Assembly: GCA_037446155.1 (NCBI GenBank)
Contig: JBBIJE010000008.1
Span: 94,049-158,048 of the forward strand
DNA: 64,000 nt
Source of the DNA: Myxococcales bacterium
GTDB taxonomy: Bacteria > Desulfobacterota > Binatia > UTPRO1 > JBBIJE01
Direction: 5' to 3'
Part shown: positions 4,867 to 47,380 of the stretch, in pieces
Layout: the number at the start of each line of letters is the position of its first letter
Position numbering within the stretch: the first letter of the stretch is position 1
Position numbers and translations under genes: made by a program
Notes under the pieces: generated by a model
The model's input: only the letters and a program-made list of their open reading frames with translations
Database searches by the model: none
Told to the model about the DNA's origin: nothing

Positions 4867-4955
4867 CCGGCAGGAGGATAGAGGAGGTCGGGCGGGCTGT
4901 AAAGCGGGGCCGCTCGAGTGCCGCGATTGTTGGCAGGTTCGGCATCTGCTAGGAG

Positions 4956-9631: not shown

Positions 9632-9720
9632 GCAGGCGGGGGCAGGTCGAGATCCGCCAATGCCAGGGATCTTTCTACGGCCTATGGTCAGTCAACTTAG
9701 GGGAAGCGAGCGGCGAAAAA

Positions 9721-18445: not shown

Positions 18446-19957
18446 ATGGGGCAGACGATCGCCGCCTCGCCGCCGCGCTTTGGTGTGCGCGCGAAACTCA
18501 TCGTTGCCGCCGCCGCCGTCGTAGCCGCGATAAACGGAGTGGCCATGTGGCGGGCGCTCGCCAACGTCGAAGCGCAAGTTCTCGCCGATGCCAGGCAGCG
18601 CGTGCGCTTGGTGAATTACGCTGTCGAGCGAACCGCGGTAAATCTCATGCTCTCGGGAGAGCCGGATCGGTTGCAGATCTTTGTAAGCTCGCTCAAGGGC
18701 CACTCGGATATCGCAGACGTCAGGATTCTCGACCGAGAGGGAACGGTAGTCGCTTCCTCGGTGCCGAGTGAGCTCCGCACACGGCTTTCGCTGCGCGGTA
18801 TCGGCCTCGTGGTTCCGAGCGAGCGGCAGCGAATTATCGCCGAGCACGCCGGGGAGGGACACTTCTTGACTGTGGTAAGTCCCGTCCGCAACGAGCCGAT
18901 GTGCCACAGGTGTCACTCCGCCTCCGAGCGGTTCAACGGCACGTTTGTGGTAAGCATTTCCATCGACCCGCTGGTCTCGCGCGTTTCCGGGCTTCGTCGC
19001 TACCAGTTGGCTACGGGAACGGGTGCGGTGGCCGCCATGATCGGGGCGCTTTGGGTATTGATCTCGGTTATGGTTAGCCGGCCCATAAACCGCTTCATGA
19101 GCGCCATCTCGCAGGTTCGACGAGGCGATCTGTCGGCCGTCGTGGATGTAAGGCAGCGGGATGAGTTGGGGGCGCTCGCCCAGCATTTCAACGCTATGGT
19201 GGGGGAGATCCACCAGGCGCGCGAGCGGCTGGAAGAGTATCATCGCAGGGAAATCGCCCAAGCGGGCAGACTGGCGAGCTTAGGAGAGATGCTTTCGGGT
19301 CTGGCCCACGAGATCCGCAATCCGCTCGCGGGGATCATCGGGGCGATGGCCGTATTCGAACAGAGCATGGCCGAGGAGGACCCTCGCCGCGAGGTGGTTC
19401 GCGAGGTGGGCGAGCTGGTGCGGCGGTTGGGGAAGACGGCGGACGCGATCTTGACTTACGCCCGACCGTCGCCGCCGTCGTTCGAGCCGATCGACATCCA
19501 CCAACTTCTCGATTACTCGCTATTTCTGGTGGGCGCCGATAAGCCGCGCACTGGGGTTGAGATCGTGCGGGAATACGCGCCATCGCTTCCCGCGCTGGTC
19601 GGCGATCCCAAGCAACTGCAGCAGGTCTTCGTGAACCTGCTTCTCAACGCGCTTCAGGCTGTTGGCGAGCGCGGCCGGATCGTGGTTTCCACGGCGGACG
19701 GCATGGACGGAGGTGTGCGCGTTACCGTCGCCGACGATGGACCTGGGATCGACCCGGCCCACCGGGACTCGATTTTCGAGCCATTTTTCACGACCAAAGC
19801 CAATGGAACCGGGTTGGGCCTCGCGATAAGCCGCCGTCTCCTCGAGGCTCACGGCGCGACCATTTCGCTGGAGGACCGGCCGAAGGGGACCGCCTTTGTC
19901 GTTCATTTGCCGGGACCTCCTCCCAAGGCGGATCTTGGCCGCCAAGGACCGGCGTGA
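18446..19957 (+). CDS. Sensor histidine kinase with a periplasmic domain carrying one c-type haem-binding CxxCH motif.
   Basis: Topology: TM1 (about residues 16-36), a periplasmic domain of about 140 aa containing PMCHRCHS (nt 18902-18916), TM2, a HAMP-like region, the HisKA H-box [12 protein letters not shown], and HATPase_c motifs DDGPGI and GTGLGL. Confidence 0.8.
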
Positions 19958-20049: not shown

Positions 20050-20065
20050 TGGCATGAGCGTTGCA
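20050..20065 (+). promoter_or_regulatory. Sigma-54 (-24/-12) promoter upstream of the NtrC-type regulator gene.
   Basis: TGGCATGagcgTTGCA matches the TGGCACG-N4-TTGCA consensus, with GG and GC at the correct spacing. It lies about 220 bp upstream of the ATG at 20287. Confidence 0.55.
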
Positions 20066-20286: not shown

Positions 20287-21660
20287 ATGCAGGCGCGGGT
20301 GTTGGTAGTCGATGACGAGAAGCTCATTCGCTGGTCGCTCTCGCAACACCTGACCAAGCAGGGTTTCGAAGTATTTACCGCAGAAGGAGCCGAGGACGGG
20401 CTCAAGCTCTTTAGCGACGAGCTGCCCGAAGTCGTGATTCTCGATGTGCGGCTCAAGGGTGACGATGGTATCGAGGTCCTTCGGAAGATCCGCGAGGTGG
20501 ACGAGGATGTATCGGTTATAATGATTACCGCACATGCCGCCGTCGGCTCGGCCGTCGAGGCGATGAAGCTCGGCGCTTACGATTACATTACCAAGCCTTT
20601 CGAGCTCGACAAGGTCGAGCGTGTGGTGAACAAGGCGCTCGAAGCGGGCCGTCTAAAACGAGAGGTCGCCAGATTCAGGCGCGGACAGAAGCGCAAGTTC
20701 GGCTTCGAGAAGATCGTGGGAAGCTCCTACGCGATGCAGCGCGTTCTGGAGACGGTGGAGAAGCTGGTCGTGAGCGACTTCCATACGGTGTTGCTGCAGG
20801 GGCCCAGTGGATCGGGTAAGGATCTGGTAGCGCGCGCGCTTCATTTCAATAGCGCGCACGCCGACGCGCCCTTCGTGGACCTGAATTGCAGCGCCATTCC
20901 CGAGTCGCTGATAGAAAGCGAACTTTTCGGTTTCGAGAAGGGCGCGTTCACCGACGCCCGAGCCGCGAAGAAAGGGCTTTTCGAACTGGCGGAGGGCGGC
21001 TCGATCTTTCTCGACGAGATCAGCGACATGCCCCTAGGGGTGCAGAGCAAACTGCTCAAGGTGATCGAGAACCGTACGGTGCGCAGGCTGGGGGGACTTC
21101 GCGATATTCCGGTCGACACGCGCGTGATCGCCGCTACGAACCGCCGACTCGACGAGGAGGTAAAAAACAAACGGTTTCGCGAAGATCTCTTCTACCGGCT
21201 AAACGTCATAGCCATAACGCTTCCCTCGCTGGCCGAAAGGCGCGAGGACATTCCGGCCTTGGCACACCATTTCATCGAACAGTTCAATCGGGAGTTTCGC
21301 CGCTCGTTCACCGGCGTAGATCCCGAGGCGATGAACCTGCTTTGCGCTTACCCTTGGCCTGGTAACGTACGCGAGCTACGGAACGTGATCGAACGCGTGG
21401 TGATTTTGGAACAAGGACCGTTGATTCTCCCCGACCACTTGCCCCCCGAGGTCAGAAAGGGCGGCACCCCGGTGCATGACGGTGGCTTTAGATTGGCGCC
21501 GAGCGGGGTATCGCTCGAAGAAGTGGAGCGGAGTTTGGTTTTGCAGGCGATCGAGCTTTCGCACGGAAACCAAACCCATGCCGCCCAGCTTCTTCAGATA
21601 AGCCGCGACGCTTTGCGTTATCGGCTTCAGAAATACGGTCTCCTTCAAGGCAAGTCATAA
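20287..21660 (+). CDS. Sigma-54-dependent response regulator (NtrC/AtoC family enhancer-binding protein).
   Basis: Receiver domain (VVDDE...D54 context ILDVRL). AAA+ sigma-54 activator domain with Walker A GPSGSGKD, the GAFTDA motif (a GAFTGA variant) and ESELFGFEKGAF. C-terminal Fis-type HTH. Confidence 0.85.
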   Translation: MQARVLVVDDEKLIRWSLSQHLTKQGFEVFTAEGAEDGLKLFSDELPEVVILDVRLKGDDGIEVLRKIREVDEDVSVIMITAHAAVGSAVEAMKLGAYDYITKPFELDKVERVVNKALEAGRLKREVARFRRGQKRKFGFEKIVGSSYAMQRVLETVEKLVVSDFHTVLLQGPSGSGKDLVARALHFNSAHADAPFVDLNCSAIPESLIESELFGFEKGAFTDARAAKKGLFELAEGGSIFLDEISDMPLGVQSKLLKVIENRTVRRLGGLRDIPVDTRVIAATNRRLDEEVKNKRFREDLFYRLNVIAITLPSLAERREDIPALAHHFIEQFNREFRRSFTGVDPEAMNLLCAYPWPGNVRELRNVIERVVILEQGPLILPDHLPPEVRKGGTPVHDGGFRLAPSGVSLEEVERSLVLQAIELSHGNQTHAAQLLQISRDALRYRLQKYGLLQGKS

Positions 21661-26431: not shown

Positions 26432-28525
26432 TCAAAATCTTCTGATGACCTCCAGTGCCACCCTGTCTTCGCGACTATCGGTTGCCAGGACGGAGCGATT
26501 GAAATGATCGTAGCTGAGCGTCCATTCGAGCGCGCGAAGCTCCCCTCTGATCCGCCCCCCGAAATCGAAAAAGTCGGTATCGCCGGAGAGCGAATCGCGC
26601 CGAAGCCTAGCCCCGGCGAACGTCTCGAGCTGAAAAAGGGTGACCGGACGCCAGGTCATGTTGGCGCGAAACGTGTAGAATTCGGTTTCTCGGGTCGGGT
26701 TTTCGAAGCTAACCAACGACTGCGATCCACTCAGGCCCACCCTGAGCCGCGGTGTGAACCTGTACACCACGACTTGGTTGAAATCGAAAGATTCGAAGGT
26801 AAGGCGCTCCGAGCGGTAGTTACGATACTGGTTGAACGCCGAAGCGATCGCCGCCCCGCGCTCCCAGCGAAGCTCCACTCCGGCCGTGTCAGATTTTATG
26901 TCCTCGAGAAATCCCTGATCGTCGCCGCTCATCAGCCTTTCGTAGGTGCGCTCGTTGATGTAGAAAATATGGATCAGGCCGAAGTCGAGACCCACATTGG
27001 AGCTTACAGCGGTCGTCGAGAAACGCAACTCGGGCGGCACTTCGAAGGTATAGTCAACGAGAACCGTTTGCCCTTCCGCGATCAGCCCGAGCGGGTTGCG
27101 CTCCACCTCCAGCCTATCTCCCACCACCGTCAGGCTGTAATCGGGTCCCTCTTCGAAAATCGTCGTTCCGGTCACGTCCGTTATGACTACCGTCGCCGGA
27201 TCGACACGGCGGTTGTCGAGGAAGAACGTGCCGGCGGGACCGAAAGTGTGGCTTTCTGCGAAGACGTCGATCCTGCCTGTCGGGACCGTCTGGTCGTCGA
27301 TCCGATACGACCCTGCCACGCCGGCCAGAAAAAACCCCTGCCACGGGATGCGCTTGCGGTACGAAAGATTCGCGTTGGGGCCGTAAGAGGTGAAATCGCC
27401 TTGGGTGAAGTCCGAGCGTGTGCCGCTTAGCAAAAGGGAACTGTTTAGCGACTGATAATATTGATGGTTGACGCCGACCGAGCCTGAGTGGGTTCTGGTT
27501 TCCGAAAACTCCGATTCCAGGTTCGCGAAGCTGTACCTATAGACGGTGGCGAGGTCCCGGTGATGGGTAAGCCGCAAACCCTCGCTCGCCGTTATCGAGC
27601 GGGACGAGATACTGCCCGAGCGGTCGAAGAGACGGGCCGAGGAGTTGAGGCTGTTATTCGAGAACTCCCCAAAAAGGAGCCGATGGACCACGCTTGCGTC
27701 GTGAGCGGTAAAGCTGCTGAAGGGGTTGAGCAGGTTGTCGAAGTCGGTGAACTCGTAGCGCAGATCGGCGTCGCTTCGTTCTTTCGAATGTCGCGCCGTC
27801 AACCCGGCGATCCGCCGCCTCTCCTCGCGCTCGGAGCGTGAGCCCGCGGCCCTGAACTCCTCGTCCAATTCTTCCTCGCGGGCGTAGACCGTGGCCGGGA
27901 GCGTTCTCGATCTCATGTTGACAGTCGCCCCTTTGGATTCGATCCTGACGTCGGAGGTCCCGGCGAAGTCGCGAGATATCGTGCTGTCGTTGCGAAAAGC
28001 GAAAGCGTCGAGGCTTATTCTTCGCTCTCTCAAGAGCGTCGCCCGCGCATCGTAGCCTATGAGCGTTCCGTCGCCGCTCGGCCCTCCGGCGCTTCCGGAG
28101 TTCTCCTCTTGGAACAAGCCGAACTCCCCTGCAAGCCGAAAGGACAAGAGGTCGGGGCTGTACAGAAAACCTCGGTTGTGGATTCCCAACCTCTCGCGAG
28201 CGAGGAGCCTGCGTAAAGTTACGTCCTCGCCCGAAGCCGGTGAAACGGTTTCGTCGCTGTAATCGGCCCGGCCGATTATCCTACCCCCCCAATCTCCCAC
28301 GCTCAGCCACTGCGCTTCGGCCTTAGCGCCGCCGAGCGCCTGCAACATGGAGCACCCGAGCCCGAGGGCCACCAGCCGGAGAATGCGCCCGCCGGCTCTT
28401 GCGTGCTTCTCGATTGGGCGCCCGCGAGCGAAGGGGCTCTTGGTATCGCCCGCCGTTCCGTTGGTGCTTACCGCCGCGGCAGCCGCACGAGGTCGGAGTG
28501 CGACAAGTTCCCAGTCAGCAGCCAC
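26432..28525 (-). CDS. Outer-membrane beta-barrel protein (porin-like). The exact start is uncertain; a signal-peptide-like segment RILRLVALGLGCSMLQALGGAKA lies about 50 codons into the ORF.
   Basis: 697 aa. C-terminal ...VIRRF ends in Phe, as in Omp85/porin-type barrels. Alternating amphipathic beta-strand pattern rich in Y/F/R/D/S. Its stop is 14 bp upstream of the multihaem cytochrome start. Confidence 0.5.
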   Translation of the reverse strand: MAADWELVALRPRAAAAAVSTNGTAGDTKSPFARGRPIEKHARAGGRILRLVALGLGCSMLQALGGAKAEAQWLSVGDWGGRIIGRADYSDETVSPASGEDVTLRRLLARERLGIHNRGFLYSPDLLSFRLAGEFGLFQEENSGSAGGPSGDGTLIGYDARATLLRERRISLDAFAFRNDSTISRDFAGTSDVRIESKGATVNMRSRTLPATVYAREEELDEEFRAAGSRSEREERRRIAGLTARHSKERSDADLRYEFTDFDNLLNPFSSFTAHDASVVHRLLFGEFSNNSLNSSARLFDRSGSISSRSITASEGLRLTHHRDLATVYRYSFANLESEFSETRTHSGSVGVNHQYYQSLNSSLLLSGTRSDFTQGDFTSYGPNANLSYRKRIPWQGFFLAGVAGSYRIDDQTVPTGRIDVFAESHTFGPAGTFFLDNRRVDPATVVITDVTGTTIFEEGPDYSLTVVGDRLEVERNPLGLIAEGQTVLVDYTFEVPPELRFSTTAVSSNVGLDFGLIHIFYINERTYERLMSGDDQGFLEDIKSDTAGVELRWERGAAIASAFNQYRNYRSERLTFESFDFNQVVVYRFTPRLRVGLSGSQSLVSFENPTRETEFYTFRANMTWRPVTLFQLETFAGARLRRDSLSGDTDFFDFGGRIRGELRALEWTLSYDHFNRSVLATDSREDRVALEVIRRF

Positions 28526-28759
28526 AGGTCATGCATCCTCCACTTTCGGATCTCGGCCGACCGGCCCGACCGCGATAGCCCTGGGAACAATAACGGCAGC
28601 GCGACTCTACAGCCAGCAACCTCCCCCCACCCTCTGGTGTCCTGCAAGCCCAGACGCGAGCTTGCGCCGGCTAGACGGCATTCAGAGCCTAGCGCAAGGG
28701 GGGGAAATCTACAATAATGATTCGTGTCGCGACAATCGCGGTCGAAAGAGGGGAAAGGT

Positions 28760-29905
28760 ATGCGGATCTACGCAGACGCGGGGGGCTCGGCACTTGGTTG
28801 CGTGCAGCGAAGAGGGCTGCGGGCGGGGCTCGTTGCGGTCGCGGGCCTGGTGGCGACGGTGTTCCTTAGCGGCTGCCCTGCTCGGAAATCGGGCATGGAG
28901 CTTATACCGCTCATGTGGCCCGAGCCCCCCGAGACTCCGAGAATCCGGTTCGTCACGGCCTTCGCCAGCGAAAGGGATTTGAGGAGCGGCTTCGATGTGG
29001 GCAAGTTCCTGCAGGACGTCGTCATCGGAAAGCCGCCGCCTGTTTGGCACCTCTACGCTCCGATGGGCGTGGCGGTTTCCGATGACAAGCGGGTTTACGT
29101 TGCCGACTATGGGCAATCGATGGTTTACATATTCGACCTCAAGCGAAACCGCGTAAAAACCATCGGGGAGGACGGAGGCTTCGGTAAGCCCACGGATGTA
29201 GCGGTTGACGCCAAAGGGGAGGTGTACGTTCTCGATCAGCCGAGCAACGCGGTGGTTGTACTCGATGCCGACGGCAATTCGCTTCGGGGCATGGCGCTCG
29301 AGCACGTTATTCGCCCGACCGGGATAGCGATCGACGACCAAAGAGGGCGCATGTACGTGGCGGACTCCTCGAAAAGGGAGTCTACCGAGCACTATGTCAG
29401 GGTGTACGATAAAGAGAGCGGAGCGTTTATCCGAAACATCGGTAACGGCAGGGGATTCGAGGAGGGAAACCTCTACTTTCCCACCTTCGTTGCGGTGGAC
29501 AGCACGGGGAATATCTACGTCTCGGACACGATGAATAGCCGCGTGGTGAAATTCGACCCCGAGGGGAATTTTCTCATGACCTTCGGTAAGAGGGGGGACC
29601 AGTTCGGCGAGTTCGACAAGCCCAAGGGGGTAGCTCTCGATACCTTTGGCAACCTCTACGTGGTCGACTCGAGCTGGAGCAACGTCCAGATCTTCAATCA
29701 ACGTGGCCAGGTCCTTCTCTTCTTCGGTGGCAGAAGCCGCTACCCTGGCATGCTCGAGAACCCAACCGGGATAGACATAGACGGGAATAACACGATTTAC
29801 GTGGCCGATACCTTCAACCGCCGCGTGAACGTCTATCAACTGGTAAATACCACCGCAGGGGACAGCTTTCTCCAGTTGCCCGAGCCGAGCGGGGAGGAGA
29901 AGTGA
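28760..29905 (+). CDS. NHL-repeat six-bladed beta-propeller lipoprotein.
   Basis: Lipobox FLSGC. Repeated NHL blades P.GVAVD..G.VYVAD..N..V..FD. Start chosen at ATG 28760, which has a GAGGGGAAAGG RBS (the ORF-track start at 28724 is a GTG). Confidence 0.7.
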   Translation: MRIYADAGGSALGCVQRRGLRAGLVAVAGLVATVFLSGCPARKSGMELIPLMWPEPPETPRIRFVTAFASERDLRSGFDVGKFLQDVVIGKPPPVWHLYAPMGVAVSDDKRVYVADYGQSMVYIFDLKRNRVKTIGEDGGFGKPTDVAVDAKGEVYVLDQPSNAVVVLDADGNSLRGMALEHVIRPTGIAIDDQRGRMYVADSSKRESTEHYVRVYDKESGAFIRNIGNGRGFEEGNLYFPTFVAVDSTGNIYVSDTMNSRVVKFDPEGNFLMTFGKRGDQFGEFDKPKGVALDTFGNLYVVDSSWSNVQIFNQRGQVLLFFGGRSRYPGMLENPTGIDIDGNNTIYVADTFNRRVNVYQLVNTTAGDSFLQLPEPSGEEK

Positions 29906-30932: not shown

Positions 30933-30948
30933 TGGCATGAGAGTTGCT
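30933..30948 (+). promoter_or_regulatory. Sigma-54 (-24/-12) promoter upstream of tetrahaem cytochrome paralog B.
   Basis: TGGCATgagagTTGCT has correct GG/GC spacing. It lies 60 bp upstream of the ATG at 31009. Confidence 0.55.
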
Positions 30949-31008
30949 CGAAGGGCGTGCCAGGGGCGCCGGTGGCGTGACCCAAATTTCAGGAAGAGGA
31001 GGAAAGCT

Positions 31009-31815
31009 ATGAACGTTAGAAAAGGGTGCCACGTAACAGTAGCCTTGTGCGCGGGGCTTGCGCTGGCGCTCGCTCCTAAGCTCGTGTGGGCCCAGGCCGC
31101 ACCGGGTGCGGGAATCGAAGATAGCCATCACGATTTCACAGCCGGGCACGCGACCGCCTCGACGACCGATGCCGGAGCGGGGATTTGCATCTTTTGCCAT
31201 GTACAGCACCGGCAGGGGGCTCCAGCGACTGCCAGCACGAGGCTTCTTTGGAACCACAAGCTCTCGTCGTTGAGCTACTCATGGAGCGACGTTACCAAGA
31301 CGGTCGGTGGGACGGATTTGCCGACCAACCTTGGGACTTGGGCCGGGCCTTCGAAGAACTGCCTCTCTTGCCACGACGGGACGGTCGCGGTGGGTGATGT
31401 GTACCGTACCGCCGCATTCCCCGCGACGTCGTTCACGGTCACCGGGACCCGGATCACCGATGGGAAGATCAGCGCAAGCTTTCTCCTGATCCCGAGCGCC
31501 ACTGGCGATCTCAAGGGTAACCACCCGGTCGGCGTGCCCTATCCCTTCGGCGGGGCGCAGAGCACGTACAATGGGATCACCACCGGCTCGGGCGTAGCCA
31601 CCGGTGATTACAAAGCCGATCCGCAAAACGTCCGCATCTACACCGACGTGGGCAACGATTACCAGATCGGTGGAACCACCGGGCAGGCCGGAATCGAGTG
31701 CGGAAGCTGCCACGACCCGCACAACAGGGACGTCAAGGAAGATCCGCTTCTTCGCGATTTCTTCACGCTCGGGAGCGGTTCTCCGAGCGCGATCTGCCTA
31801 GACTGCCACTTCTAG
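31009..31815 (+). CDS. Tetrahaem c-type cytochrome (doubled-CxxCH type), paralog B.
   Basis: RBS AGGAAGAGGAGGAAAGCT-ATG. Haem motifs CIFCHVQH, CLSCHDGT, CGSCHDPHN and CLDCHF. It is collinear with paralog A along its whole length, including the shared NCLSCHDGTVAVGDV block. Confidence 0.75.
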   Translation: MNVRKGCHVTVALCAGLALALAPKLVWAQAAPGAGIEDSHHDFTAGHATASTTDAGAGICIFCHVQHRQGAPATASTRLLWNHKLSSLSYSWSDVTKTVGGTDLPTNLGTWAGPSKNCLSCHDGTVAVGDVYRTAAFPATSFTVTGTRITDGKISASFLLIPSATGDLKGNHPVGVPYPFGGAQSTYNGITTGSGVATGDYKADPQNVRIYTDVGNDYQIGGTTGQAGIECGSCHDPHNRDVKEDPLLRDFFTLGSGSPSAICLDCHF

Positions 31816-33307: not shown

Positions 33308-33323
33308 CGGCATGCGCCTTGCT
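33308..33323 (+). promoter_or_regulatory. Sigma-54 (-24/-12) promoter upstream of the giant multihaem cytochrome gene.
   Basis: cGGCATGcgccTTGCT has correct GG/GC spacing. It lies 93 bp upstream of the ATG at 33416 and is nearly identical to the promoter at 42973. Confidence 0.5.
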
Positions 33324-33415: not shown

Positions 33416-36400
33416 ATGCGAGGACAAGGTAGGACGACATTGGTCATCGGCGCCGTGGGTTTGCTGGCGCTATTTTTTGCGTCGGGTAAAGCCCTTGCCG
33501 ATCCGAGTTATTTCACTTCGCGGTGCGCGCTTTGCCATGCGGACGATACGCCGACTTGTGATGGGTGTCACGGGCACGTGGTTGGGGGCCTCAAGGCTGT
33601 GACCGACAAACAGCAATATTTACCTGGTGAGACGGTTACCGTGACTTTTCAGTCCTGGAATTGGGGCGGTTGGGTTAGGGCGGTCTTGTATGACGAGACG
33701 ATGACGGAAGTGGATCGGGTAACGGGTCCCACGGGGACTGGGGACGATGGTAGTGGGGATCCGAGTCTGTGGTTTCCGGTGGTTTTGAGTGCGCCTGCAC
33801 CTATGGCATCGGGGTTTTACACGTGGAGCGTTGGGTGGTTCGGGAGTCCTGGGACGCCAGGAGGTGCGTACCCGCACATCCAGGATGTGGTTTCCACGAA
33901 CCAGTTCGAGGTGACGACCTCCGGTAGCACCACTACCACGACCAGCACTACTACGACGAGCACCGCGAGCACGACGACGAGCACTGCAAGCACGACGACC
34001 AGCACGGCGACAACGACCTCGACCACGACGACTACGACATTGCCGCCTCCCGCTGCGGAGCTGGATCATTTCTTGTGTTACGCGACGAAGCTCAAGAAGC
34101 TGATTTCGGTAGATCTGAGCGACCAGTTCGATTCAGGAACCTACACCGGCAACGTAGCCAAACTCTTTTGCGCGCCCGCGGACAAGAATGGCGAGGGGAT
34201 CTCCGATCCGGATACGCATCTTCTGTCCTACAAAATCAAGGGCTTGCATGTGGGCCGGACGAATGTGGAGGTTTTGGATCAGTTCGGGACGTACGTCTAC
34301 GACACGAAGAAAACCGATAGCCTGATGATTCCGACGGCAAAGAGCATAGCTCCGGCTCCTCCGCCCGGCCCGCCGAATCCAGCGAGTTTGGTGGATCATT
34401 ACCGGTGTTTGAAGGTGAAGACGAGCGCTGGGACGCCCAAGTTTCCGAAGGACAAGAGCGTTCAGGTTGTGGATCAGTTCGGGGCCGCGCGGACCTTCTT
34501 CGTGAAGAAGCCCTCTCGGTTGTGTTTGCCTGTGGACAAGAACGGGGAGGGGATCAAGAACCCGGACATGCACCTCATGTGTTACAAGGGCAAGACGTCG
34601 GTTAGAACGTCTGCCGTTGGAGTGCAGATCAACAACCAGTTCGGTGCGGATACGATCGCGCTAAAGAAGGAGGCAGAGCTTTGCCTGCCAGCTCGAAAGA
34701 ACCCGCGGAAGGTAAATCCGGGAGACCCGGTGTTGGCGCCGGCTGCCGGGTACATCGGGTCTCCGACCTGCATGGAGTGCCACGAGGAAAAGTACTGGGG
34801 CTGGATCGACACGCTCCATCGGTTGCCGATTCGTGACACCAACGAGCCTGGGCTTACGGGCAAGGCTATCGTGGCGGACAGCGACGGTGACGGGACGGAC
34901 GACTTCAAGGAGGGAACGAATCTCGCAACCGCGCCAAACGCCACCCCATTTGCCGTGTACGGCTCCAACGCGCCGGTATTAGGGTTCGATCCCGGCCGGG
35001 TGGATCCGAACAGCGGAGCGATGGGGGTTTACACTATCACGATCGGGCCCATCACTTACGACATAACCCGCACGCACGGCGGAAACGGGTACTGGAAGCA
35101 ACGCTATCAGACCAGGATAGGTGACAGTTACTACTACCTGCCGGTTCAGTACAACGAGACCGCTAACGCATACGTCGTTTACAATGGCGGCGACTGGTAC
35201 GACGGCTCGAACAATCCGCGCTACACCAATCCTGCTACACTCGAGGCCGACATCGACAAGAGTCGTTCCTACGAGCGCAACTGTGCGGGATGTCACAACA
35301 CCGGCGTCGACGTCGAGGTGGATGGCGCCGGGCAGTGGGTGACAGGGTACGTGGAGCTCGGGATCGGCTGCGAGGACTGCCACGGGCCGGGTGAAACTCA
35401 TGCGGCGAGCATGGATCCCGCCGACATCATAAACCCGGGCAAGTTCGGGCCGTGCGACGGCGACCTGGTTGCGGGCGACGGCAACAAGGACGGTACCTGC
35501 AGGGAATCCGGCGTGCCTTGCGATGCGGTGGATTTACCATTCCCGGTGAACTCTCCTGATTGCCTGGCTTCTGCGAACGAAGTCTGCGGCCAGTGCCACG
35601 GCCGTGGGGCGAGCACCCTGGTGATGAACGGCAAGACGTTGGGCTACCCGGCCAAAGACGACGGTGCCGGCGGCTTCCAGGGGTTCGTACCGGGCAATAT
35701 CCTGGCAGACTTCTACGCCTTCACGACCTCGACCGGGGACTACTGGGGTTTGAACCAGGTGTTTGGCGGGGAAGGGCACACGGTTCCATCGAGCCCGAAC
35801 TCGTTCGTAGCCTCCAAGAGCCATCACCAACAGTACCTCGACTGGCTCATCAGCCCGCACGCGCCCGATAACTTCTACGACCCGACGTGCTTTAGCTGCC
35901 ACGACTCGCACGGAAGTGGTAACGAGCACAACATCGTGGAAAGCCTCGAGGAAGACGGGGTCGAGATTCCGACCAAGGTGGATGACAATAGTCTCTGCTT
36001 GGCTTGTCACGCGACTCACGGCCCCTTTGCGGGCGTGACCAAGGAGCAGGTGGCCGAGATCGGCTCGGGGACCACGCCGCCCGAGATCGTTGACGCCGTC
36101 CTCGACCACATGGCCGAGGAGGCCGGGATGGGTGGAGCCTACGATCCACTGGGATCCGGTGTGGGCCGCTGCACGAGCTGCCATCTGCCGCAGCTTGCGA
36201 AGTCGGCGGTAGGGGGCACGGATGCCGAGGGACACACCACGGGCGACGTTACCACTCACACCTTCACGATCATCTGGCCTAGCGTGAACGAGCGCCTGAC
36301 CGGAAGCGACAAGAGCATGAGCAACTCCTGTACCGGCTGCCACAGCACGGGCTCGCCACTCGGCATGGACGAGGAGCTCTTCGAGTGGGCCAAATCGGGC

Positions 36401-37330
36401 CACGCCGACTTGACCGCACGGCACTGGCGGTATGCGGCGGGCGAGGAGCGGGCGGCTTGCGTGCGGTGTCACTCGGGCAACGGGTTCGTCGATTTCCTCG
36501 CGGGGATCCCCGAGGGGGATCGGCGCACCGAGCCCAAGATGGTCACCTGCTACGCTTGTCACGACGGGACACCGGGCGACTTGCACCCGGTGCGCGCGGT
36601 GGCTTCGGTGACCTTCCCGTCGGGGTCGGTTATCACGGCGGGTGACGATGCCAAGATCTGCATGAACTGCCACCAGGGCAGGCAGAGCAAGAGCAGTGTG
36701 GACACGTACCTGCTGACCCACCCCGATCCGAGCCCGATCAACTTCGGCTCCGTCAACCCGCATTACTTCGCGGCTGCGGCGGTCTTCTTCGGCTCCTCGG
36801 TTAGCGGTATGTACCAGTACGACGGCAAGACCTATCTCGGTGAGTCACCCCACCGGCCGTTCAAGGGTTACTGTCTCGACTGCCACTTGAGCGAGACGCC
36901 CGGTAGCGACGACGTGGGCGGGCACACGATGGCGATGGTCGCCGACGGCCAGGAGAACACGGCAGGTTGCGGTTGCCACGCTTCTCAACCTGGCTTGGAT
37001 GCCTACAGGAACCCGTTTGGCGGAGCCGTGGACTACGACGGCGATGGGAACACCTCCGAGGGCATCAAGGGTGAGATCCAGACCATGATGGACGATCTCA
37101 TAGCGGCTCTGAACGCTGCCGGCATCACCTGCACCGACTCGTATCCGTACTGCTCGGGCTGGAACGGCACGACCGAGCAGCAGAAGAGCCAGCTCAAGGC
37201 CGCGTACAACTACCGGTTCTTGAAGACCGAGCATGGCGCTTATGCCCACAACGGGCTGTACGCGCTCCAGATCTTGCACGACTCGTATGCAGATTTGACG
37301 GGAGGCCCGCACGCAGGTGTAAGGCCCTAG
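33416..37330 (+). CDS. Giant secreted multidomain c-type cytochrome of 1304 aa. Order: N-terminal dihaem module, Thr/Ser-rich linker, four copies of a cysteine-containing repeat, then a C-terminal multihaem domain of about 12 haems, for about 14 CxxCH in total.
   Basis: RBS GAGGAGGAGG. Signal peptide LVIGAVGLLALFFASGKALA. CxxCH motifs are CALCH, CDGCH, CMECH, CAGCH, CEDCH, CGQCH, CFSCH, CLACH, CTSCH, CTGCH, CVRCH, CYACH, CMNCH and CLDCH. The linker is about 40 residues of S/T. Confidence 0.8.
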   Translation: MRGQGRTTLVIGAVGLLALFFASGKALADPSYFTSRCALCHADDTPTCDGCHGHVVGGLKAVTDKQQYLPGETVTVTFQSWNWGGWVRAVLYDETMTEVDRVTGPTGTGDDGSGDPSLWFPVVLSAPAPMASGFYTWSVGWFGSPGTPGGAYPHIQDVVSTNQFEVTTSGSTTTTTSTTTTSTASTTTSTASTTTSTATTTSTTTTTTLPPPAAELDHFLCYATKLKKLISVDLSDQFDSGTYTGNVAKLFCAPADKNGEGISDPDTHLLSYKIKGLHVGRTNVEVLDQFGTYVYDTKKTDSLMIPTAKSIAPAPPPGPPNPASLVDHYRCLKVKTSAGTPKFPKDKSVQVVDQFGAARTFFVKKPSRLCLPVDKNGEGIKNPDMHLMCYKGKTSVRTSAVGVQINNQFGADTIALKKEAELCLPARKNPRKVNPGDPVLAPAAGYIGSPTCMECHEEKYWGWIDTLHRLPIRDTNEPGLTGKAIVADSDGDGTDDFKEGTNLATAPNATPFAVYGSNAPVLGFDPGRVDPNSGAMGVYTITIGPITYDITRTHGGNGYWKQRYQTRIGDSYYYLPVQYNETANAYVVYNGGDWYDGSNNPRYTNPATLEADIDKSRSYERNCAGCHNTGVDVEVDGAGQWVTGYVELGIGCEDCHGPGETHAASMDPADIINPGKFGPCDGDLVAGDGNKDGTCRESGVPCDAVDLPFPVNSPDCLASANEVCGQCHGRGASTLVMNGKTLGYPAKDDGAGGFQGFVPGNILADFYAFTTSTGDYWGLNQVFGGEGHTVPSSPNSFVASKSHHQQYLDWLISPHAPDNFYDPTCFSCHDSHGSGNEHNIVESLEEDGVEIPTKVDDNSLCLACHATHGPFAGVTKEQVAEIGSGTTPPEIVDAVLDHMAEEAGMGGAYDPLGSGVGRCTSCHLPQLAKSAVGGTDAEGHTTGDVTTHTFTIIWPSVNERLTGSDKSMSNSCTGCHSTGSPLGMDEELFEWAKSGHADLTARHWRYAAGEERAACVRCHSGNGFVDFLAGIPEGDRRTEPKMVTCYACHDGTPGDLHPVRAVASVTFPSGSVITAGDDAKICMNCHQGRQSKSSVDTYLLTHPDPSPINFGSVNPHYFAAAAVFFGSSVSGMYQYDGKTYLGESPHRPFKGYCLDCHLSETPGSDDVGGHTMAMVADGQENTAGCGCHASQPGLDAYRNPFGGAVDYDGDGNTSEGIKGEIQTMMDDLIAALNAAGITCTDSYPYCSGWNGTTEQQKSQLKAAYNYRFLKTEHGAYAHNGLYALQILHDSYADLTGGPHAGVRP
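33915..34045 (+). repeat. Low-complexity ACC/ACG/AGC codon repeat encoding the Thr/Ser-rich linker inside the giant cytochrome gene.
   Basis: About 130 nt of imperfect triplet repeats (accaccacgaccagcactactacgacgagcacc...) encoding TSGSTTTTTSTTTTSTASTTTSTASTTTSTATTTSTTTTTT. Confidence 0.5.
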
Positions 37331-42847: not shown

Positions 42848-42884
42848 TGCGGAAAAGCGCGCACCGCGTGAGAATTGCCGCGGT
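42848..42884 (+). promoter_or_regulatory. Dyad element TGCG-N8-CGCA with a degenerate GAGAAT-containing copy about 21 bp downstream (candidate UAS).
   Basis: TGCGGAAAAGCGCGCA (42848-42863), then CGCGTGAGAATTGCCGCG. They lie about 90-125 bp upstream of the sigma-54 promoter at 42973. Confidence 0.4.
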
Positions 42885-42972
42885 CATTGTTGTGGCGGCC
42901 TTCGTGTGTAACTGCGCCTCGTTTAAAGGCCTTCGCTAGGCCCCGCGGGTGTGGTGGCGCTGCAATTGCTGA

Positions 42973-42988
42973 CGGCATGCGGCTTGCA
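42973..42988 (+). promoter_or_regulatory. Sigma-54 (-24/-12) promoter upstream of the haem/PKD/NHL paralog operon.
   Basis: cGGCATGcggcTTGCA has correct spacing. It lies about 55 bp upstream of the TTG start at 43043. Confidence 0.55.
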
Positions 42989-43042
42989 TCGGCCTGTCCG
43001 CGGTCCCAGTGTCTCAAGCCTGGGGCAGGAGGGGCATGCGTC

Positions 43043-45517
43043 TTGTGCCGGAAGCTTGCTAGCGCTGCGATCGTCGGTCTGTTTTTCCTTGGCCTTGCCG
43101 GGGGAAGCGCACTTGCCGACCCGAGCTACTTCGCCATCCGCTGCGCCCTTTGCCACTATGACGACAACCCGACCTGCTCCGGCTGCCATCAGCACGTTCA
43201 GGGCGGCCTCGTGGCGAGGACCGACAAGACTCAGTACTGGCCCGGCGAAACCGTAAGAGTGACGCTTTCGTCGTGGGACTGGCCGGGTTGGGTGCGGGCG
43301 ATCCTTTACGACCAGAGTGGGCGCGAGCTCACGCGCGTAGGCGGGGCCACCGGAACCGGCGACGACGGAAGCGGCAATCCCGCGCTCGAGCTCCCCGTGG
43401 TCTTGGTTGCCCGCGCTCCCCTGACGGCGGGGTCTTACAGGTGGACCGTGGCGTGGTTTGGCAGCGGAGGCTCTCCCGGCAACGAGTTTCCCCATCTGGA
43501 AGAGCCGGTACCGACGAACTCCTTCGACGTCAGCGGCAGTCCCCCCAGTACGACGACCACCACCACGTCCTCCACTACTACGACCGTTCCAAGCACCACG
43601 ACGACCACCACCACCACGACCACCACCACGGCGACCGCGACCACGACCAGCACTACCGCGAGCACTACGACCACGAGCACCTCCTCCACCACCTCCACGA
43701 CGCTTCCGGGCCCCCTCGACGATTTCCTCTGTTACAAGGTGCGGGCTAGGCAGGACGTCAGCGTAAATTTGAGCGATCAGTTCGATTCGGGCCAATATCT
43801 GGGGAGGGTGGCAAAGCTTCTCTGCGCGCCGGCTGACAGCGGCTCGGGTATATCGCACCCGCAAACGCACCTTATGTCTTATCGGATCCAGGGGCCCCAC
43901 CTGCGGCGAACGGGCATCGAGGTGGTGAACCGTTTTGGCACCTATTACTTCGACACCAAGAAGACCTACAGCCTCATGGTGCCTACGGCAAAGAGCCTGA
44001 TTCCCGACCCGCCGCCGGGGCCGCCTGACGCCGGCGCCGTGGACCACTATCGGTGTTTGACTATAAGGACAACGACGGGCACGCCCGAATTTCCAAATGG
44101 GCTTACGATTGCCGTAACCGACCAGTTCGGAACCCACAACTTCGCGATCAAGAAGCCGCGCACCCTCTGCGTGCCCACCGACAAGAATGGAGAGGGAATC
44201 GAGCGGCCACAGGCATACCTTACCTGTTACAAGGGAAAGGCTGACCCGAGGGTGTCCGTTGCAGGGGTCCAAGTCAACAATCAGCTTGGGCAAGCCGTGT
44301 TGAACCTGAGCAAAGAGATAGAGCTTTGCGTGGCCTCTCAGCCGCCACCTGGACCAACCACGACTACGACGACCACGACGAGCAGCACGACCAGCACCAC
44401 GGTCACGCCCACTAGCACCACTACCACCACGACCACCGTGCCGGGCAACGAGCCGCCGACGATCGCCGTTAGCGCCGATCGCACTGAAGGGCCCATAGCC
44501 TTGAGCGTTCGGTTTAGCGCTTCGGCTACCGACCCCGATGGAGAGGTCGTTGCGATCCACTGGGATTTCGATGACGGCACGGTGGGGAGCGGGGCTTCGC
44601 TTTCTCACGTATTTCACGTGGCCGGCGGCTACAGAGTTACCGCCACGGCAACCGACAACCGGGGAGGGCAGGCACGGGCTACGATCCCAATAGCGGCAAG
44701 GCCGCTCGCGGGCGGGTCCGTGGATCAGCCGTATCCGACCCGCCTGGCGCTCGGACCCCAGGGGAAGCTCTACGTAACCGATGCCTCCGCCGGGTCGGTC
44801 TTCGTTTACGATTCTAGTTTGAATCCTGCGGGCGAAATCGCTGGGATCGATCTTCCCTTGGGTGTGGCGGTCGACAGCCAGGGGCGAATTTACGTGGGTA
44901 GCGACGGGGCCGACTCGGTCGAGGTCTACGACGGCGCCGGGGTCAAGCTTTACAGCATCGATGCGGGCGGGATCTCGATGCCGAACGACATTGTCATAGA
45001 TACCGCGGACATTCTCTACGTCGTCGATAGCCGGGCGGATACGGTGCGAGTGTATAACGCCGCAGGCACGTGGCTTAGAGACATCGGGGGCCCGGGCGAC
45101 GGTGCGGGAGAGTTGCGCTTTCCCGCCGCGGTGGCCATCGGCGGCGAGCCGCCGGAGCTTTACGTAGCCGATCAGGGCCACTCGCTCGTTCAGGTTTTCG
45201 ATCCCGGCGGAACGTTCCTGCGCAGTTTCGGCGGGGCGGTGGGGGCGTTTTCACCGCAATGGAAGGGCCTCTTCGTGAGGATGCAGAGCCTTTCGCTGGA
45301 TGGACGCGCAGCCTTGCAAGTGGCTGATACCTACATGGATCGGGTGCAGTTTCTCGATCGCACGACGGGTGAGTTTCGCGGCTACTACGGCGAGTTCGGC
45401 GGTGGCGCCGGGCAGCTCAATCTACCCCTCGACCTGGTGGTTACTGGGGACAACCGAGCCATCGTGGCGGACGCGGAAAACCACCGGATCCAGTGGTTCG
45501 ATCTCGAGGTGCCCTAA
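43043..45517 (+). CDS. Secreted paralog of the giant cytochrome. Same N-terminal dihaem module, Thr-rich linker and four cysteine-containing repeats, followed by a second Thr-rich linker, a PKD domain and a C-terminal NHL beta-propeller.
   Basis: TTG start 10 nt after AGGAGG. Signal peptide ...LASAAIVGLFFLGLAGGSALA. Haem motifs CALCH and CSGCH. The PKD domain shows IHWDFDDGT. Repeated NHL blades LYVTDASAGSVFVYD and LYVVDSRADTVRVYN. It is collinear with 33416..37330 over the first 430 aa or so. Confidence 0.75.
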   Translation: MCRKLASAAIVGLFFLGLAGGSALADPSYFAIRCALCHYDDNPTCSGCHQHVQGGLVARTDKTQYWPGETVRVTLSSWDWPGWVRAILYDQSGRELTRVGGATGTGDDGSGNPALELPVVLVARAPLTAGSYRWTVAWFGSGGSPGNEFPHLEEPVPTNSFDVSGSPPSTTTTTTSSTTTTVPSTTTTTTTTTTTTATATTTSTTASTTTTSTSSTTSTTLPGPLDDFLCYKVRARQDVSVNLSDQFDSGQYLGRVAKLLCAPADSGSGISHPQTHLMSYRIQGPHLRRTGIEVVNRFGTYYFDTKKTYSLMVPTAKSLIPDPPPGPPDAGAVDHYRCLTIRTTTGTPEFPNGLTIAVTDQFGTHNFAIKKPRTLCVPTDKNGEGIERPQAYLTCYKGKADPRVSVAGVQVNNQLGQAVLNLSKEIELCVASQPPPGPTTTTTTTTSSTTSTTVTPTSTTTTTTTVPGNEPPTIAVSADRTEGPIALSVRFSASATDPDGEVVAIHWDFDDGTVGSGASLSHVFHVAGGYRVTATATDNRGGQARATIPIAARPLAGGSVDQPYPTRLALGPQGKLYVTDASAGSVFVYDSSLNPAGEIAGIDLPLGVAVDSQGRIYVGSDGADSVEVYDGAGVKLYSIDAGGISMPNDIVIDTADILYVVDSRADTVRVYNAAGTWLRDIGGPGDGAGELRFPAAVAIGGEPPELYVADQGHSLVQVFDPGGTFLRSFGGAVGAFSPQWKGLFVRMQSLSLDGRAALQVADTYMDRVQFLDRTTGEFRGYYGEFGGGAGQLNLPLDLVVTGDNRAIVADAENHRIQWFDLEVP
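43549..43705 (+). repeat. Low-complexity ACC/ACG codon repeat encoding a Thr/Ser-rich linker; a second copy lies at 44355-44441.
   Basis: Encodes TTTTTSSTTTTVPSTTTTTTTTTTTTATATTTSTTASTTTTSTSSTTSTT. The complementary strand gives artefactual poly-Val ORFs (43435..43698 and 44338..44580). Confidence 0.5.
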
Positions 45518-45529
45518 AGGCTTTGAAAG

Positions 45530-47380
45530 ATGAAAAGCAGCGTGATCAAGGGAACGGGCCTGCTCTTTGCCGTGGCGGTCCTGTGCCTGCCTTCGAGATC
45601 GCAGGCGCTCGATCCCCCTCACAATGCGAGCAACCACATCGACTGTAACTCTTGTCACGCCGTGGTCCCCGCCTTCATCCCGCTTCGCCAAAGGCAGGAG
45701 AGCGCCTGCAAGACCTGTCACAACCCGACCGGTCAGGCATCCACCCGTTCGACTGCGCTTCGGAACCACGTGGTAAACGGGGGGAGCAAGATCGTGGATT
45801 GCGGATCCTGTCATGATCCGCACGGTCCCTCGATCACGACGGATCCCCATACCGGGCGGAGAGCGACCAACCTTTGGTTGATCCGCTGGGATACGGCTAA
45901 GTACGTTGCGGGGGCCCTGGAGCCCGCGATCTTTCACGAGCGGCCGGCGCATTTCGCGTTCGGCGACGCCAATCCGCCTTGGAACGGCGCATGCCAGACC
46001 TGCCACGCGCAGACGAGCCATCATCGTAACGACGCCACATCCGACCACAGCCACCAGTTGGGAGATGACTGCACGCAATGCCATCTTCACGGAAGCGGCT
46101 TTTTGCCCGCCGGGGGTGGCGGGGACTGCACGGGCTGCCACAGCGGGCCGCAGGACAACGGGGACGGAGTTCCGCCGGGCGGTCGGCGCGCTGTGGTTTC
46201 CGAGTTTCCGACCGGAGACGAGGGCCTACACGCCCATTACGGGGCGGAGCTTGGAAGCGACGACTGCGTCATCTGCCACAGCCAGGATACGCACATGGAC
46301 GGATACGTGGACCTGATCGATCCCGACGACGGCAGCATGTACCGCTTCAAGCTCAGGGGAGATCTCTTATCCGATCCTGATCTCTCCGATTTCTGCGCTC
46401 ACTGCCACGACGCCGATGGCGCCGCGCGGCTGGCCACTCCGCTGGATCCCTTCGGGAACGGAAACGCACCGCCCGATGTCGCCACGCGCTTCCAGGGAAC
46501 CCTCAGGTGGGACGAGTGGTACGGTGACTTCTGCTTCGGCGAGGAAGGTACGCTGCGCCAGGTCAACAGTCACCATGACATCAGCGACTCCGATCAGGCC
46601 TGGAGCGGAGCGAAGATCGAATGCCTAAGCTGCCACGGGGCGCACAACCCTTCGGCCGCTCGCCCCGTCGTCGATCCCTTCGACACCGCGACTCCGTGGA
46701 CCGGAAAGGACAACGGATTTTGCTTGAGCTGCCACGCCGGCGGAAACGGACCCGCCGATCCGGACTTCCCCGCCGGTGTCGTCGGCCCGGCAGTTCCTCT
46801 GCGCGGCCTCGATACTTGCTACTACACGGGCGGGCCCTGGTGGGTCGATTATACCTGGACACACGCGGCGCACGGTCTCGACTCCAAGCGCGCTTGGTCG
46901 GGTTACTCGGGCGCGCCGGGATACGAACTGCCCTGTCTCGGGTGTCACGACCCGCACGGGTCCTATACGCCCGCCAACCCGGCCGGGAATCCTTATATGA
47001 TCCGGGACTTCGTCGATGGGACGCAATTCGTGGACGACGGGACGCGCACCGGAGGCTTCACCGGTCCCCCCTGGAACACGTTCGGTACCTCGGGCCCGGT
47101 GGTCGTGACGATAAGCGGCACCGACGTGGATTGGGGAAGCTCGCAGAGTCTGTGTGGCCGCTGCCATGCAAGTTGGCTTGCGGCCTACGACTGGCACGCG
47201 TACTGTACGGGTTGTCAAACTTGCCACGGTCACGGCCAGGCGTGGGGCAACGCCGACTGGGTCGGTTTTGACGACGACACCCCGTGCCCGGTAGGGGGGA
47301 GCGGCATTGCTGGGGGCACCGGATCGGGCCGGCTGCTCTTCGACCGCAAGAACCCGCCAATTCATTTCGGGGCGCAGTAA
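45530..47380 (+). CDS. Secreted multihaem c-type cytochrome with 13 CxxCH motifs.
   Basis: Signal peptide LLFAVAVLCLPSRSQA. Haem motifs CNSCH, CKTCH, CGSCH, CQTCH, CTQCH, CTGCH, CVICH, CAHCH, CLSCH, CLSCH, CLGCH, CGRCH and CQTCH. It starts 12 bp after the upstream stop, so it is in the same operon. Confidence 0.8.
   Translation: MKSSVIKGTGLLFAVAVLCLPSRSQALDPPHNASNHIDCNSCHAVVPAFIPLRQRQESACKTCHNPTGQASTRSTALRNHVVNGGSKIVDCGSCHDPHGPSITTDPHTGRRATNLWLIRWDTAKYVAGALEPAIFHERPAHFAFGDANPPWNGACQTCHAQTSHHRNDATSDHSHQLGDDCTQCHLHGSGFLPAGGGGDCTGCHSGPQDNGDGVPPGGRRAVVSEFPTGDEGLHAHYGAELGSDDCVICHSQDTHMDGYVDLIDPDDGSMYRFKLRGDLLSDPDLSDFCAHCHDADGAARLATPLDPFGNGNAPPDVATRFQGTLRWDEWYGDFCFGEEGTLRQVNSHHDISDSDQAWSGAKIECLSCHGAHNPSAARPVVDPFDTATPWTGKDNGFCLSCHAGGNGPADPDFPAGVVGPAVPLRGLDTCYYTGGPWWVDYTWTHAAHGLDSKRAWSGYSGAPGYELPCLGCHDPHGSYTPANPAGNPYMIRDFVDGTQFVDDGTRTGGFTGPPWNTFGTSGPVVVTISGTDVDWGSSQSLCGRCHASWLAAYDWHAYCTGCQTCHGHGQAWGNADWVGFDDDTPCPVGGSGIAGGTGSGRLLFDRKNPPIHFGAQ

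Follow-up and report, generated by a model that had tools for sequence, protein, structure and literature searches.

A secreted dihaem/NHL-propeller protein as a candidate adaptor for a 13-haem cytochrome

The 64,000-nucleotide stretch analysed here (hereafter the window) lies at positions 94,049 to 158,048 of contig JBBIJE010000008.1 (GenBank assembly GCA_037446155.1, a Myxococcales bacterium placed by GTDB in the Binatia). At 43043..45517 it carries a gene for a secreted protein of 824 amino acids, in which a dihaem head, two threonine (Thr)-rich linkers, tandem DUF7450 units, a PKD domain and an NHL beta-propeller follow one another. A gene for a 13-haem c-type cytochrome begins 12 nucleotides after its stop codon. 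The NHL domain is most likely a conserved partner of this cytochrome family, and the two gene products are, on balance, best read as a two-subunit secreted electron-transfer unit in which the 43043 protein would serve as the adaptor. The N-terminal half of the protein recurs in a giant cytochrome encoded in the same window, and the protein is probably an adaptor in external electron wiring rather than a binder of minerals or sugars.

The NHL propeller and the adjoining cytochrome

The gene lies within an open reading frame (ORF) spanning 42875..45517 on the forward strand. Codon 43040 is GTC, so the first usable in-frame start is the TTG at 43043, which is preceded 9 nucleotides upstream by GGAGG (43029-43033); the stop codon is TAA. 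These coordinates, already proposed in the initial annotation, are exact, and the predicted 824 residues equal the length of P0121, the representative of the orthologue's cluster at 50% identity. The features of the gene and its neighbour are as follows.

43043..45517, forward: full gene, encoding the secreted dihaem/DUF7450/PKD/NHL protein
43043..43117, forward: Sec-type signal peptide, MCRKLASAAIVGLFFLGLAGGSALA / DPSYF, read from the sequence, with predicted cleavage at ALA/DPSYF
43118..43537, forward: dihaem head of ~140 residues, a predicted immunoglobulin (Ig)-like beta-sandwich with CALCH-x6-CSGCH-x-H at its start
43142-43156, forward: CALCH of the head, the first CxxCH motif
43175-43195, forward: CSGCH-Q-H of the head, the second CxxCH motif (CSGCH at 43175-43189) plus the histidine at +2
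43493-43495, forward: conserved fourth histidine of the head, from the family alignment
43538..43714, forward: first Thr-rich linker, ~59 residues of Thr/Ser, read from the sequence; identical in length in orthologue L001, longer in orthologue L040
43715..44338, forward: two DUF7450 units (Pfam PF24247), comprising four half-repeats with eight conserved cysteines, a predicted rigid all-beta module
44339..44443, forward: second Thr-rich linker, ~35 residues, read from the sequence and lacking in the giant paralog
44444..44695, forward: PKD domain (PF18911 / PF00801, collagenase PKD structures)
44732..45508, forward: six-bladed NHL beta-propeller (PF01436, NHL domains in the PDB)
45530..47380, forward: c-type cytochrome of 616 residues with 13 CxxCH motifs, co-oriented with the 43043 gene

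Two CxxCH motifs and a signal-peptide junction together mark the 43043 product as a predicted c-type cytochrome. Pfam placed the PKD domain at 54.9 bits (cut-off 27) with PF18911 and at 43.4 bits (cut-off 23.5) with PF00801, and the NHL domain at 77.3 bits (cut-off 20) with PF01436. DUF7450 scored 54.3 bits against a cut-off of 27, compared with 72.8 bits in the giant paralog, and a hidden Markov model of the family built in this analysis matched the two window paralogs at E 2e-69 and 3e-74; the half-repeat motif is CY..(D/N)QFG..LC.P..K. Residue numbers for PDB matches and alignments are counted from a translation begun at 43040 and are thus one higher than in the true protein. On that count, PDB sequence searches matched residues 459-552 to collagenase PKD structures (E 5e-12) and residues 565-822 to the six-bladed NHL domains of Thin (E=7.8e-31), TRIM71 and Brat. 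The order of second linker, PKD and NHL had been described before, with at least five blades; the Pfam and PDB matches bear it out, and six blades can be counted by eye in the sequence. Rfam and tRNA scans returned nothing.

The link between the propeller and the cytochrome is drawn from homologues of the latter, of which 188 were found. Among the 120 listed, 21 are NHL-cytochrome fusions of ~1000-1078 amino acids. In every one of the 21, residues ~30-290 form the N-terminal NHL domain and residues ~440-1040 the C-terminal part homologous to the 616-residue protein, the same order as that of the two genes in the window. Elsewhere, in other phyla, the components are separate: the cytochrome homologue is immediately preceded by a co-oriented stand-alone NHL gene in L034, from a Sumerlaeia metagenome-assembled genome (MAG), and in L035 and L039, and L038 likewise holds an NHL-then-cytochrome pair; L037 is cut by a contig end. 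With the 43043 NHL domain, the NHL proteins of L034, L035 and L038 share 44-48% identity (E 1e-67 to 1e-73), and with a second NHL protein in the window, a lipoprotein, 26-33%; the lipoprotein is itself 32% identical to the 43043 NHL domain. Since identity to cytochrome-preceding NHL proteins is 44-48% as against 32% to the lipoprotein, the 43043 domain is most likely an orthologue of the cytochrome-associated NHL and a conserved partner of the 13-haem family; by the same comparisons, the ~550 residues before it are a lineage-specific addition to that partner. One further context, L036, has a subtilisin-family (S8) protease gene at 2840-4186, between multihaem/TIG-domain cytochromes and upstream of the homologue of the 616-residue protein. 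It recalls the protease-dependent maturation of OmcZ in Geobacter.

A scaffold shared with a giant cytochrome

Within the window, the head, DUF7450 and Thr-rich runs are confined to two ORFs, the 43043 gene and the gene at 33416..37330, which encodes a giant cytochrome of 1304 residues and 14 haems.

33416..34705, forward: paralogous scaffold of signal peptide, head, Thr linker and two DUF7450 units, forming the N-terminus of the 14-haem giant cytochrome

BLASTP of the two products gave one collinear alignment with 245 of 432 identities (57%, E=1e-136), which stops at residue ~430-437 in both proteins. The initial annotation had described the first ~430 residues as collinear, and this breakpoint agrees with it. 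The similarity also reaches beyond the low-complexity linkers, as had been supposed: the heads alone, with no linker included, are 63% identical across 141 residues, and a 30-codon sliding window gave 45-76% identity all through the head and repeats. The signal-peptide junction ALA/DPSYF is common to both. Two CxxCH motifs lie in each head; they are the only ones in the 43043 protein, and the giant has twelve more downstream, its scaffold running directly into the haem array without a second Thr linker.

Identity at third codon positions between the paralogs is 0.27-0.65, mostly 0.3-0.5, and is lowest outside the Thr linker. No tract of gene conversion between them was found, the longest shared DNA word being 17 nucleotides, inside the linker. 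Because third-position identity is this low and no conversion tract was seen, the duplication is, on the sequence evidence, an old one, and both paralogs have been retained. Homology between the 616-residue cytochrome and the 12-haem C-terminal array of the giant was considered and rejected, the similarity being at the level of motifs alone (E 1e-3). Because the two arrays are not specifically related, the loci are, by this comparison, parallel designs and not duplicates of a whole unit. Both paralogs most likely end up with a multihaem array, one covalently and the other through its NHL partner. Of the original picture, one N-terminal scaffold with two different distal ends stands, and the second end as a binder of substrate or surface finds no support; instead of a multihaem domain that was replaced, the pair is better read as a scaffold grafted onto two pre-existing electron-transfer components.

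The complete architecture was found in four assemblies: the window, L001, L040 and P0121. L001, a syntenic contig from IMG metagenome 3300010938, carries the orthologue uninterrupted, at 90% identity, without indels and with linkers of the same length. This metagenome is the core co-assembly of the Chocolate Pots hot spring, an environment rich in Fe and Si with active iron redox cycling (PMC6137239). The ratio of nonsynonymous to synonymous substitution rates (dN/dS) against the L001 orthologue is 0.20 overall, with 0.12 in the head, 0.17 in DUF7450, 0.15 in NHL and 0.61 in PKD, which is 82% identical to its L001 counterpart. Judged by these ratios, the gene is under purifying selection and constraint on PKD, its least constrained part, is relaxed. 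The L040 orthologue, broken in two by a frameshift in its assembly, is 51-57% identical and has the same domain order with longer Thr linkers. The public gene call in L001 is shortened to 548 residues, apparently because of a spurious antisense ORF across the Thr-linker DNA. Such poly-Val antisense ORFs overlie linker DNA at 9550-9819 (reverse) in L001 and at 4493-4879 and 5332-5652 (both reverse) in L040, and the L001 interval 10001-11647 belongs to the shortened or split public calls. As public calls cut or split the orthologues in this way, automated annotation under-reports the architecture.

Scaffold residues 1-437, used as the query, matched 195 proteins. All but the orthologue align with the DUF7450 half only, and the dihaem head was present in 0 of the 119 other matches listed. 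Head and DUF7450 are, on this distribution, independent modules, and the single modular family put forward at first is therefore split into two. Modularity itself holds, with the head in 217 clusters and DUF7450 alongside many partners, but the combination of the two was found only in this lineage (the window and three related assemblies). DUF7450 is otherwise widespread in secreted proteins, where the typical cassette is a Thr linker, two DUF7450 units and a second Thr linker, often placed after Cys-rich N-terminal regions. Many such proteins (P0079, P0090 and P0099 among them) end after the second linker in a conserved YGSPSRAFLxxxxSLLD tail with no transmembrane segment. This tail may be an unrecognised sorting or anchoring signal; both window proteins lack it. 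The AlphaFold2 (AF2) model of the DUF7450 pair is confident and all-beta with long hairpins (predicted local distance difference test, pLDDT, 92.7; predicted template modelling score, pTM, 0.88). Foldseek found no counterpart for it in the PDB (best E 0.11, template modelling (TM) score <=0.15), and a literature search found no paper that mentions DUF7450.

The head corresponds to no Pfam or NCBIfam model. Against Pfam it gave nothing at E<=5 except noise (Cytochrome_CBB3, E 2.1), NCBIfam held no match or model, and a profile search of PDB sequences found nothing significant (best E 0.021); profiles of Paired_CXXCH_1 (PF09699), cytochrome c7 and cytochrome c3 did not match it. An exhaustive profile search with the head found 217 clusters at 50% identity, 155 of them with E<1e-10, and the match is nearly always N-terminal, starting at residue ~26-60, right after the signal peptide. 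By these searches it is an undescribed dihaem domain family. Named sources include Eisenbacteria, Krumholzibacteriia, Gemmatimonadetes, Fibrobacteraceae, Acidobacteriota, Desulfuromonadales/Geobacteraceae and Anaeromyxobacteraceae, and a genome scan of species representatives with an eight-sequence head alignment gave a best head match of 54%.

Motifs were counted in the best 150 representatives of the 217 clusters. Exactly two CxxCH motifs occur in 128 of these, and CxxCH-x(4-14)-CxxCHxH in 137, with a spacer of six residues in 76 of the 137; lengths run from ~110 to 2134 residues. Across 132 aligned heads, both CxxCH motifs are present in every one and the histidine at +2 of the second motif in 131, and a fourth histidine (distal PH/HGE), near the start of the last strand, is found in 105 of the 110 heads aligned at that position. 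Because four histidines are conserved across the family, we infer that two c-type haems with bis-His ligation are bound by the head. AF2 models the core as a beta-sandwich at pLDDT >90; the N-terminal haem peptide is less confident and has a short helix ahead of the first motif. Foldseek with this model found no cytochrome, only generic Ig-like sandwiches at TM 0.35-0.44: the Wzt carbohydrate-binding domain, an alpha-2-macroglobulin MG domain, the GH66 N-terminal domain and CopC.

The commonest members of the family are head-only proteins of ~185 residues, and these stand-alone heads (P0281 and P0305 among them; loci such as L011, L014, L018, L024 and L031) end in a conserved TWGxIKxLYR-like motif. 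Members of ~264 residues add instead an FlgD_ig or type-IX-secretion-like C-terminal domain. Among 80 long head proteins, the partners are ASH (23), HYDIN-type (22), Cep192_D4 (20), DUF1573 (18) and MopE-type metal-binding motifs (10), and also CARDB, FG-GAP, fn3 and Big; a few members of the family have 5-31 haems. Another cytochrome cluster to which the head is tied is L002 2528-10305, from an uncultured-bacterium MAG, where a 676-residue ORF ending ...ALAYRF and cytochromes of 3 and 10 haems are followed by two tandem head genes, one of which ends in a poly-Asp tail.

Proposed mechanism and its alternatives

In the arrangement proposed here, the NHL propeller would bind the 13-haem cytochrome, and the 43043 protein, as adaptor, would give it the scaffold that the giant carries covalently. 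The head would lie outside any packed haem chain with the distal array, because the ~59-residue Thr linker and the DUF7450 module come between them and neither has a cofactor motif. Most speculatively, it may be a tethered redox module that works by tethered diffusion, as shown for PgcA, and exchanges electrons with the bound multihaem array on one side and, on the other, with a further partner, be it a conduit at the cell surface, a cytochrome nearby or a mineral; alternatively, it might simply be a docking end. NHL propellers in gene clusters for extracellular electron transfer (EET) have been proposed to stabilise outer-membrane cytochrome complexes (PMC5815863; PMC9769857; bioRxiv 10.1101/2022.05.06.490989). 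That role, itself unproven, fits the adaptor reading.

Several observations weigh against this arrangement. One of the five informative genomic contexts, L036, has no NHL gene; the L039 NHL protein, directly upstream of its cytochrome, is 26% identical to the 43043 NHL domain, and the NHL domains inside the fusions are ~25-33% identical to it. Fusion and adjacency speak for a functional link, not for a physical interface. As to the head, its haem-binding peptide is modelled at pLDDT 55-67, with haem ligation not visible, most members of the family are fused to non-redox Ig-like arrays, and multihaem neighbours occur at few of 32 head loci in genomes; the role of the head may therefore be more general and unrelated to the feeding of a haem array.

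The initial annotation had taken the distal part for a binding module, in which PKD and NHL recognise Fe/Mn oxides or surface polysaccharide and the head docks to a partner shared with the giant; on that reading the protein would be an adhesin or positioning factor. PKD and NHL are indeed generic binding modules, many head proteins are adhesin-like (ASH/HYDIN/CARDB/Big Ig arrays and FG-GAP repeats), and an NHL protein of G. metallireducens was linked to adhesion in the Tenderiales preprint (bioRxiv 10.1101/2022.05.06.490989). This explanation is nevertheless unlikely, as the NHL domain is specifically akin to those that accompany cytochromes, 21 of the listed homologues are NHL-cytochrome fusions, and PKD, with its dN/dS of 0.61, is the least constrained part of the protein. 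Neither mineral nor polysaccharide binding finds support in these data, and the same is true of a ligand shared with the NHL lipoprotein, a further suggestion of that annotation, given the 32% identity of the two NHL domains.

The protein might instead stay in the periplasm as a scaffold or electron carrier between inner- and outer-membrane cytochromes, with no extracellular role. It has a Sec signal peptide only, with no lipobox or recognisable sorting domain in its sequence, and a putative outer-membrane barrel is encoded nearby with an 11-haem cytochrome. Long Thr-rich linkers, a PKD domain and disulfide-rich DUF7450 units are, however, typical of extracellular proteins, and some head-family members have type-IX-secretion-like C-terminal or choice-of-anchor domains, which leaves a purely periplasmic protein improbable.

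Slightly less probable still is a catalytic propeller, of the SGL/lactonase or strictosidine-synthase type, or a factor for cytochrome maturation or assembly, to or from which the head supplies or removes electrons. Weak matches to SSL_N, and one to ScyF (NCBIfam) that is far below cut-off, point this way; a functional link to a cytochrome is equally compatible with maturation, and the protease gene of L036 adjoins cytochromes. No catalytic propeller family, however, rose above threshold for the NHL domain in Pfam or NCBIfam, the structures closest to it by sequence are NHL domains that bind protein or RNA, and a stable fusion in 21 proteins is more easily squared with a permanent subunit than with a factor that acts transiently in assembly.

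Hardly credible is a shared N-terminus that arose as an assembly chimera or survives as a decaying, functionless remnant, as the 548-residue public call and the frameshift-split L040 gene could suggest: the ORF is uninterrupted both here and in L001, with linkers of the same length and a dN/dS of 0.2, the architecture recurs in four independent assemblies, and the shortened calls coincide with spurious antisense ORFs over Thr-linker DNA.

Genomic setting and comparison with known systems

Upstream of both paralogs lies a sigma-54-type -24/-12 motif, and the window encodes another six haem proteins along with a putative outer-membrane barrel.

42973..42988, forward: sigma-54-type -24/-12 motif CGGCATGCGGCTTGCA, fitting GGCA(C/T)-N5-TTGC, 55-69 nucleotides upstream of the 43043 start
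33308-33323, forward: the same sigma-54-type motif, 107 nucleotides upstream of the giant's start
18446..19957: sensor kinase
20287..21660: sigma-54-dependent response regulator
21879-24347, reverse: ORF of 822 residues with weak thrombospondin type-3 repeat and vWA-like matches, adjoining the cytochrome island
24595-26418, reverse: 11-haem cytochrome, after the 697-residue ORF
26432..28525, reverse: ORF of 697 residues with a signal-peptide-like N-terminus, ending ...VIRRF as in outer-membrane beta-barrels
28724..29905, forward: NHL lipoprotein, followed by two 4-haem cytochromes, a c7-like trihaem protein and the giant
29902-30714 and 30937-31815, forward: the 4-haem cytochromes, 66% identical to each other, a local duplication

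Exact matches to the motif core GGCATGCGNCTTGC number two in the window, one upstream of the 43043 gene and one at 33309. Written as GGCATGCG(G/C)CTTGC and allowed up to one mismatch, the motif has 3 matches in the window against 0.24 expected. Over the whole window a relaxed sigma-54 pattern shows no enrichment (25 matches, 21.5 expected), and significance is confined to the specific motif that the paralogs share. Upstream of the L001 orthologue (9091-9104) this motif recurs unchanged, and L040 has CGGCACATGCCTTGCA at 4055-4070, in the equivalent place and just after a gene pair for a kinase and a sigma-54 regulator. From these motifs, sigma-54 control common to both paralogs is plausible. 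Similar motifs, TGGCATGAG[AC]GTTGC, precede the regulator gene (at 20050) and the gene for the 292-residue cytochrome (at 30933).

A 4-nucleotide overlap joins the first 4-haem gene to the stop of the NHL lipoprotein gene, and the two form another NHL-then-cytochrome pair. The 697-residue ORF has no Pfam match and no similarity to the L002 barrel; with the 11-haem cytochrome it may make up a porin-cytochrome pair, divergent from the operon of the NHL lipoprotein.

NHL propellers recur in EET gene clusters with a role that has only been guessed at, and this locus, the 21 fusions and the NHL-then-cytochrome pairs together offer a concrete, testable pairing of an NHL subtype with the ~13-haem cytochrome family. 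The 43043/45530 system can be described as an NHL-associated multihaem cytochrome module into which two uncharacterised parts, the dihaem Ig-like head and DUF7450, have been built. It also emerges that hundreds of surface-type proteins begin with a member of an unannotated dihaem domain family, and that the DUF7450 fold, predicted with confidence, has no solved structure to match it. More tentatively, and with doubt prevailing, the head may be a widespread plug-in module that gives non-redox surface proteins (Ig arrays, propellers and adhesins) a connection to extracellular cytochrome networks, either electrical or through docking of haem to haem; here, with DUF7450, it would give two multihaem arrays, one covalent and one NHL-recruited, the same tethered tip under common sigma-54 control. 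If the idea of a tethered head is true, tethered diffusion of the PgcA kind would turn from the property of one Geobacter protein into a principle of modular design. The system may also matter for microbial iron redox chemistry, since one orthologue (L001) comes from an iron-cycling hot spring.

Cytochrome f and the DOMON cytochrome domain of cellobiose dehydrogenase carry haem on a beta-sandwich and not on an all-alpha fold, as is predicted for the head. The head differs in that its pair of CxxCH motifs falls in a span of 16 residues at the extreme N-terminus. The tandem DUF7450 units between Thr linkers are as in other secreted proteins with PF24247, most of which, unlike the window pair, have the cassette near the C-terminus, after a Cys-rich region, together with the YGSPSRAFL...LLD tail.

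PgcA of Geobacter sulfurreducens is an extracellular protein with three monohaem domains on flexible (PT)x linkers and no packed chain of cofactors, for which tethered diffusion has been demonstrated (PMC11520253). The 43043 protein would resemble it in the proposed mode of action only, with Thr-rich linkers of ~59 and ~35 residues, assumed to be flexible, flanking the cofactor-free DUF7450. There is no sequence relationship, the linkers are poly-Thr/Ser and not PT repeats, and the 43043 polypeptide has a single haem-bearing domain, the dihaem Ig-like head, with a propeller and not haem domains at its other end.

An NHL propeller gene also adjoins multihaem cytochromes in Desulfovibrio ferrophilus (DFE_0451 and DFE_0463, in the clusters DFE_0448-0451 and 0461-0465) and in 'Ca. 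Tenderia electrophaga' (UetH/UetI), where the propellers have been proposed as protein-protein interaction sites that stabilise the cytochrome complex (PMC5815863; PMC9769857; bioRxiv 10.1101/2022.05.06.490989). The NHL-then-cytochrome order is the same as that of UetHI-UetJ, UetJ being an undecahaem cytochrome. This likeness is one of gene-cluster logic only, and the 43043 NHL protein differs in its ~550-residue N-terminal extension of dihaem head, two Thr linkers, DUF7450 and PKD. The uncharacterised NHL-cytochrome fusions of Planctomycetota and other MAGs (for instance P0423, P0430 and P0457) have the same components in the same order, with a cytochrome 47-58% identical to the 616-residue protein. 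They have no head, DUF7450 or PKD and carry two to four extra haems between the propeller and the homologous region, whereas in the window the parts are separate genes 12 nucleotides apart and the NHL gene bears the extra scaffold.

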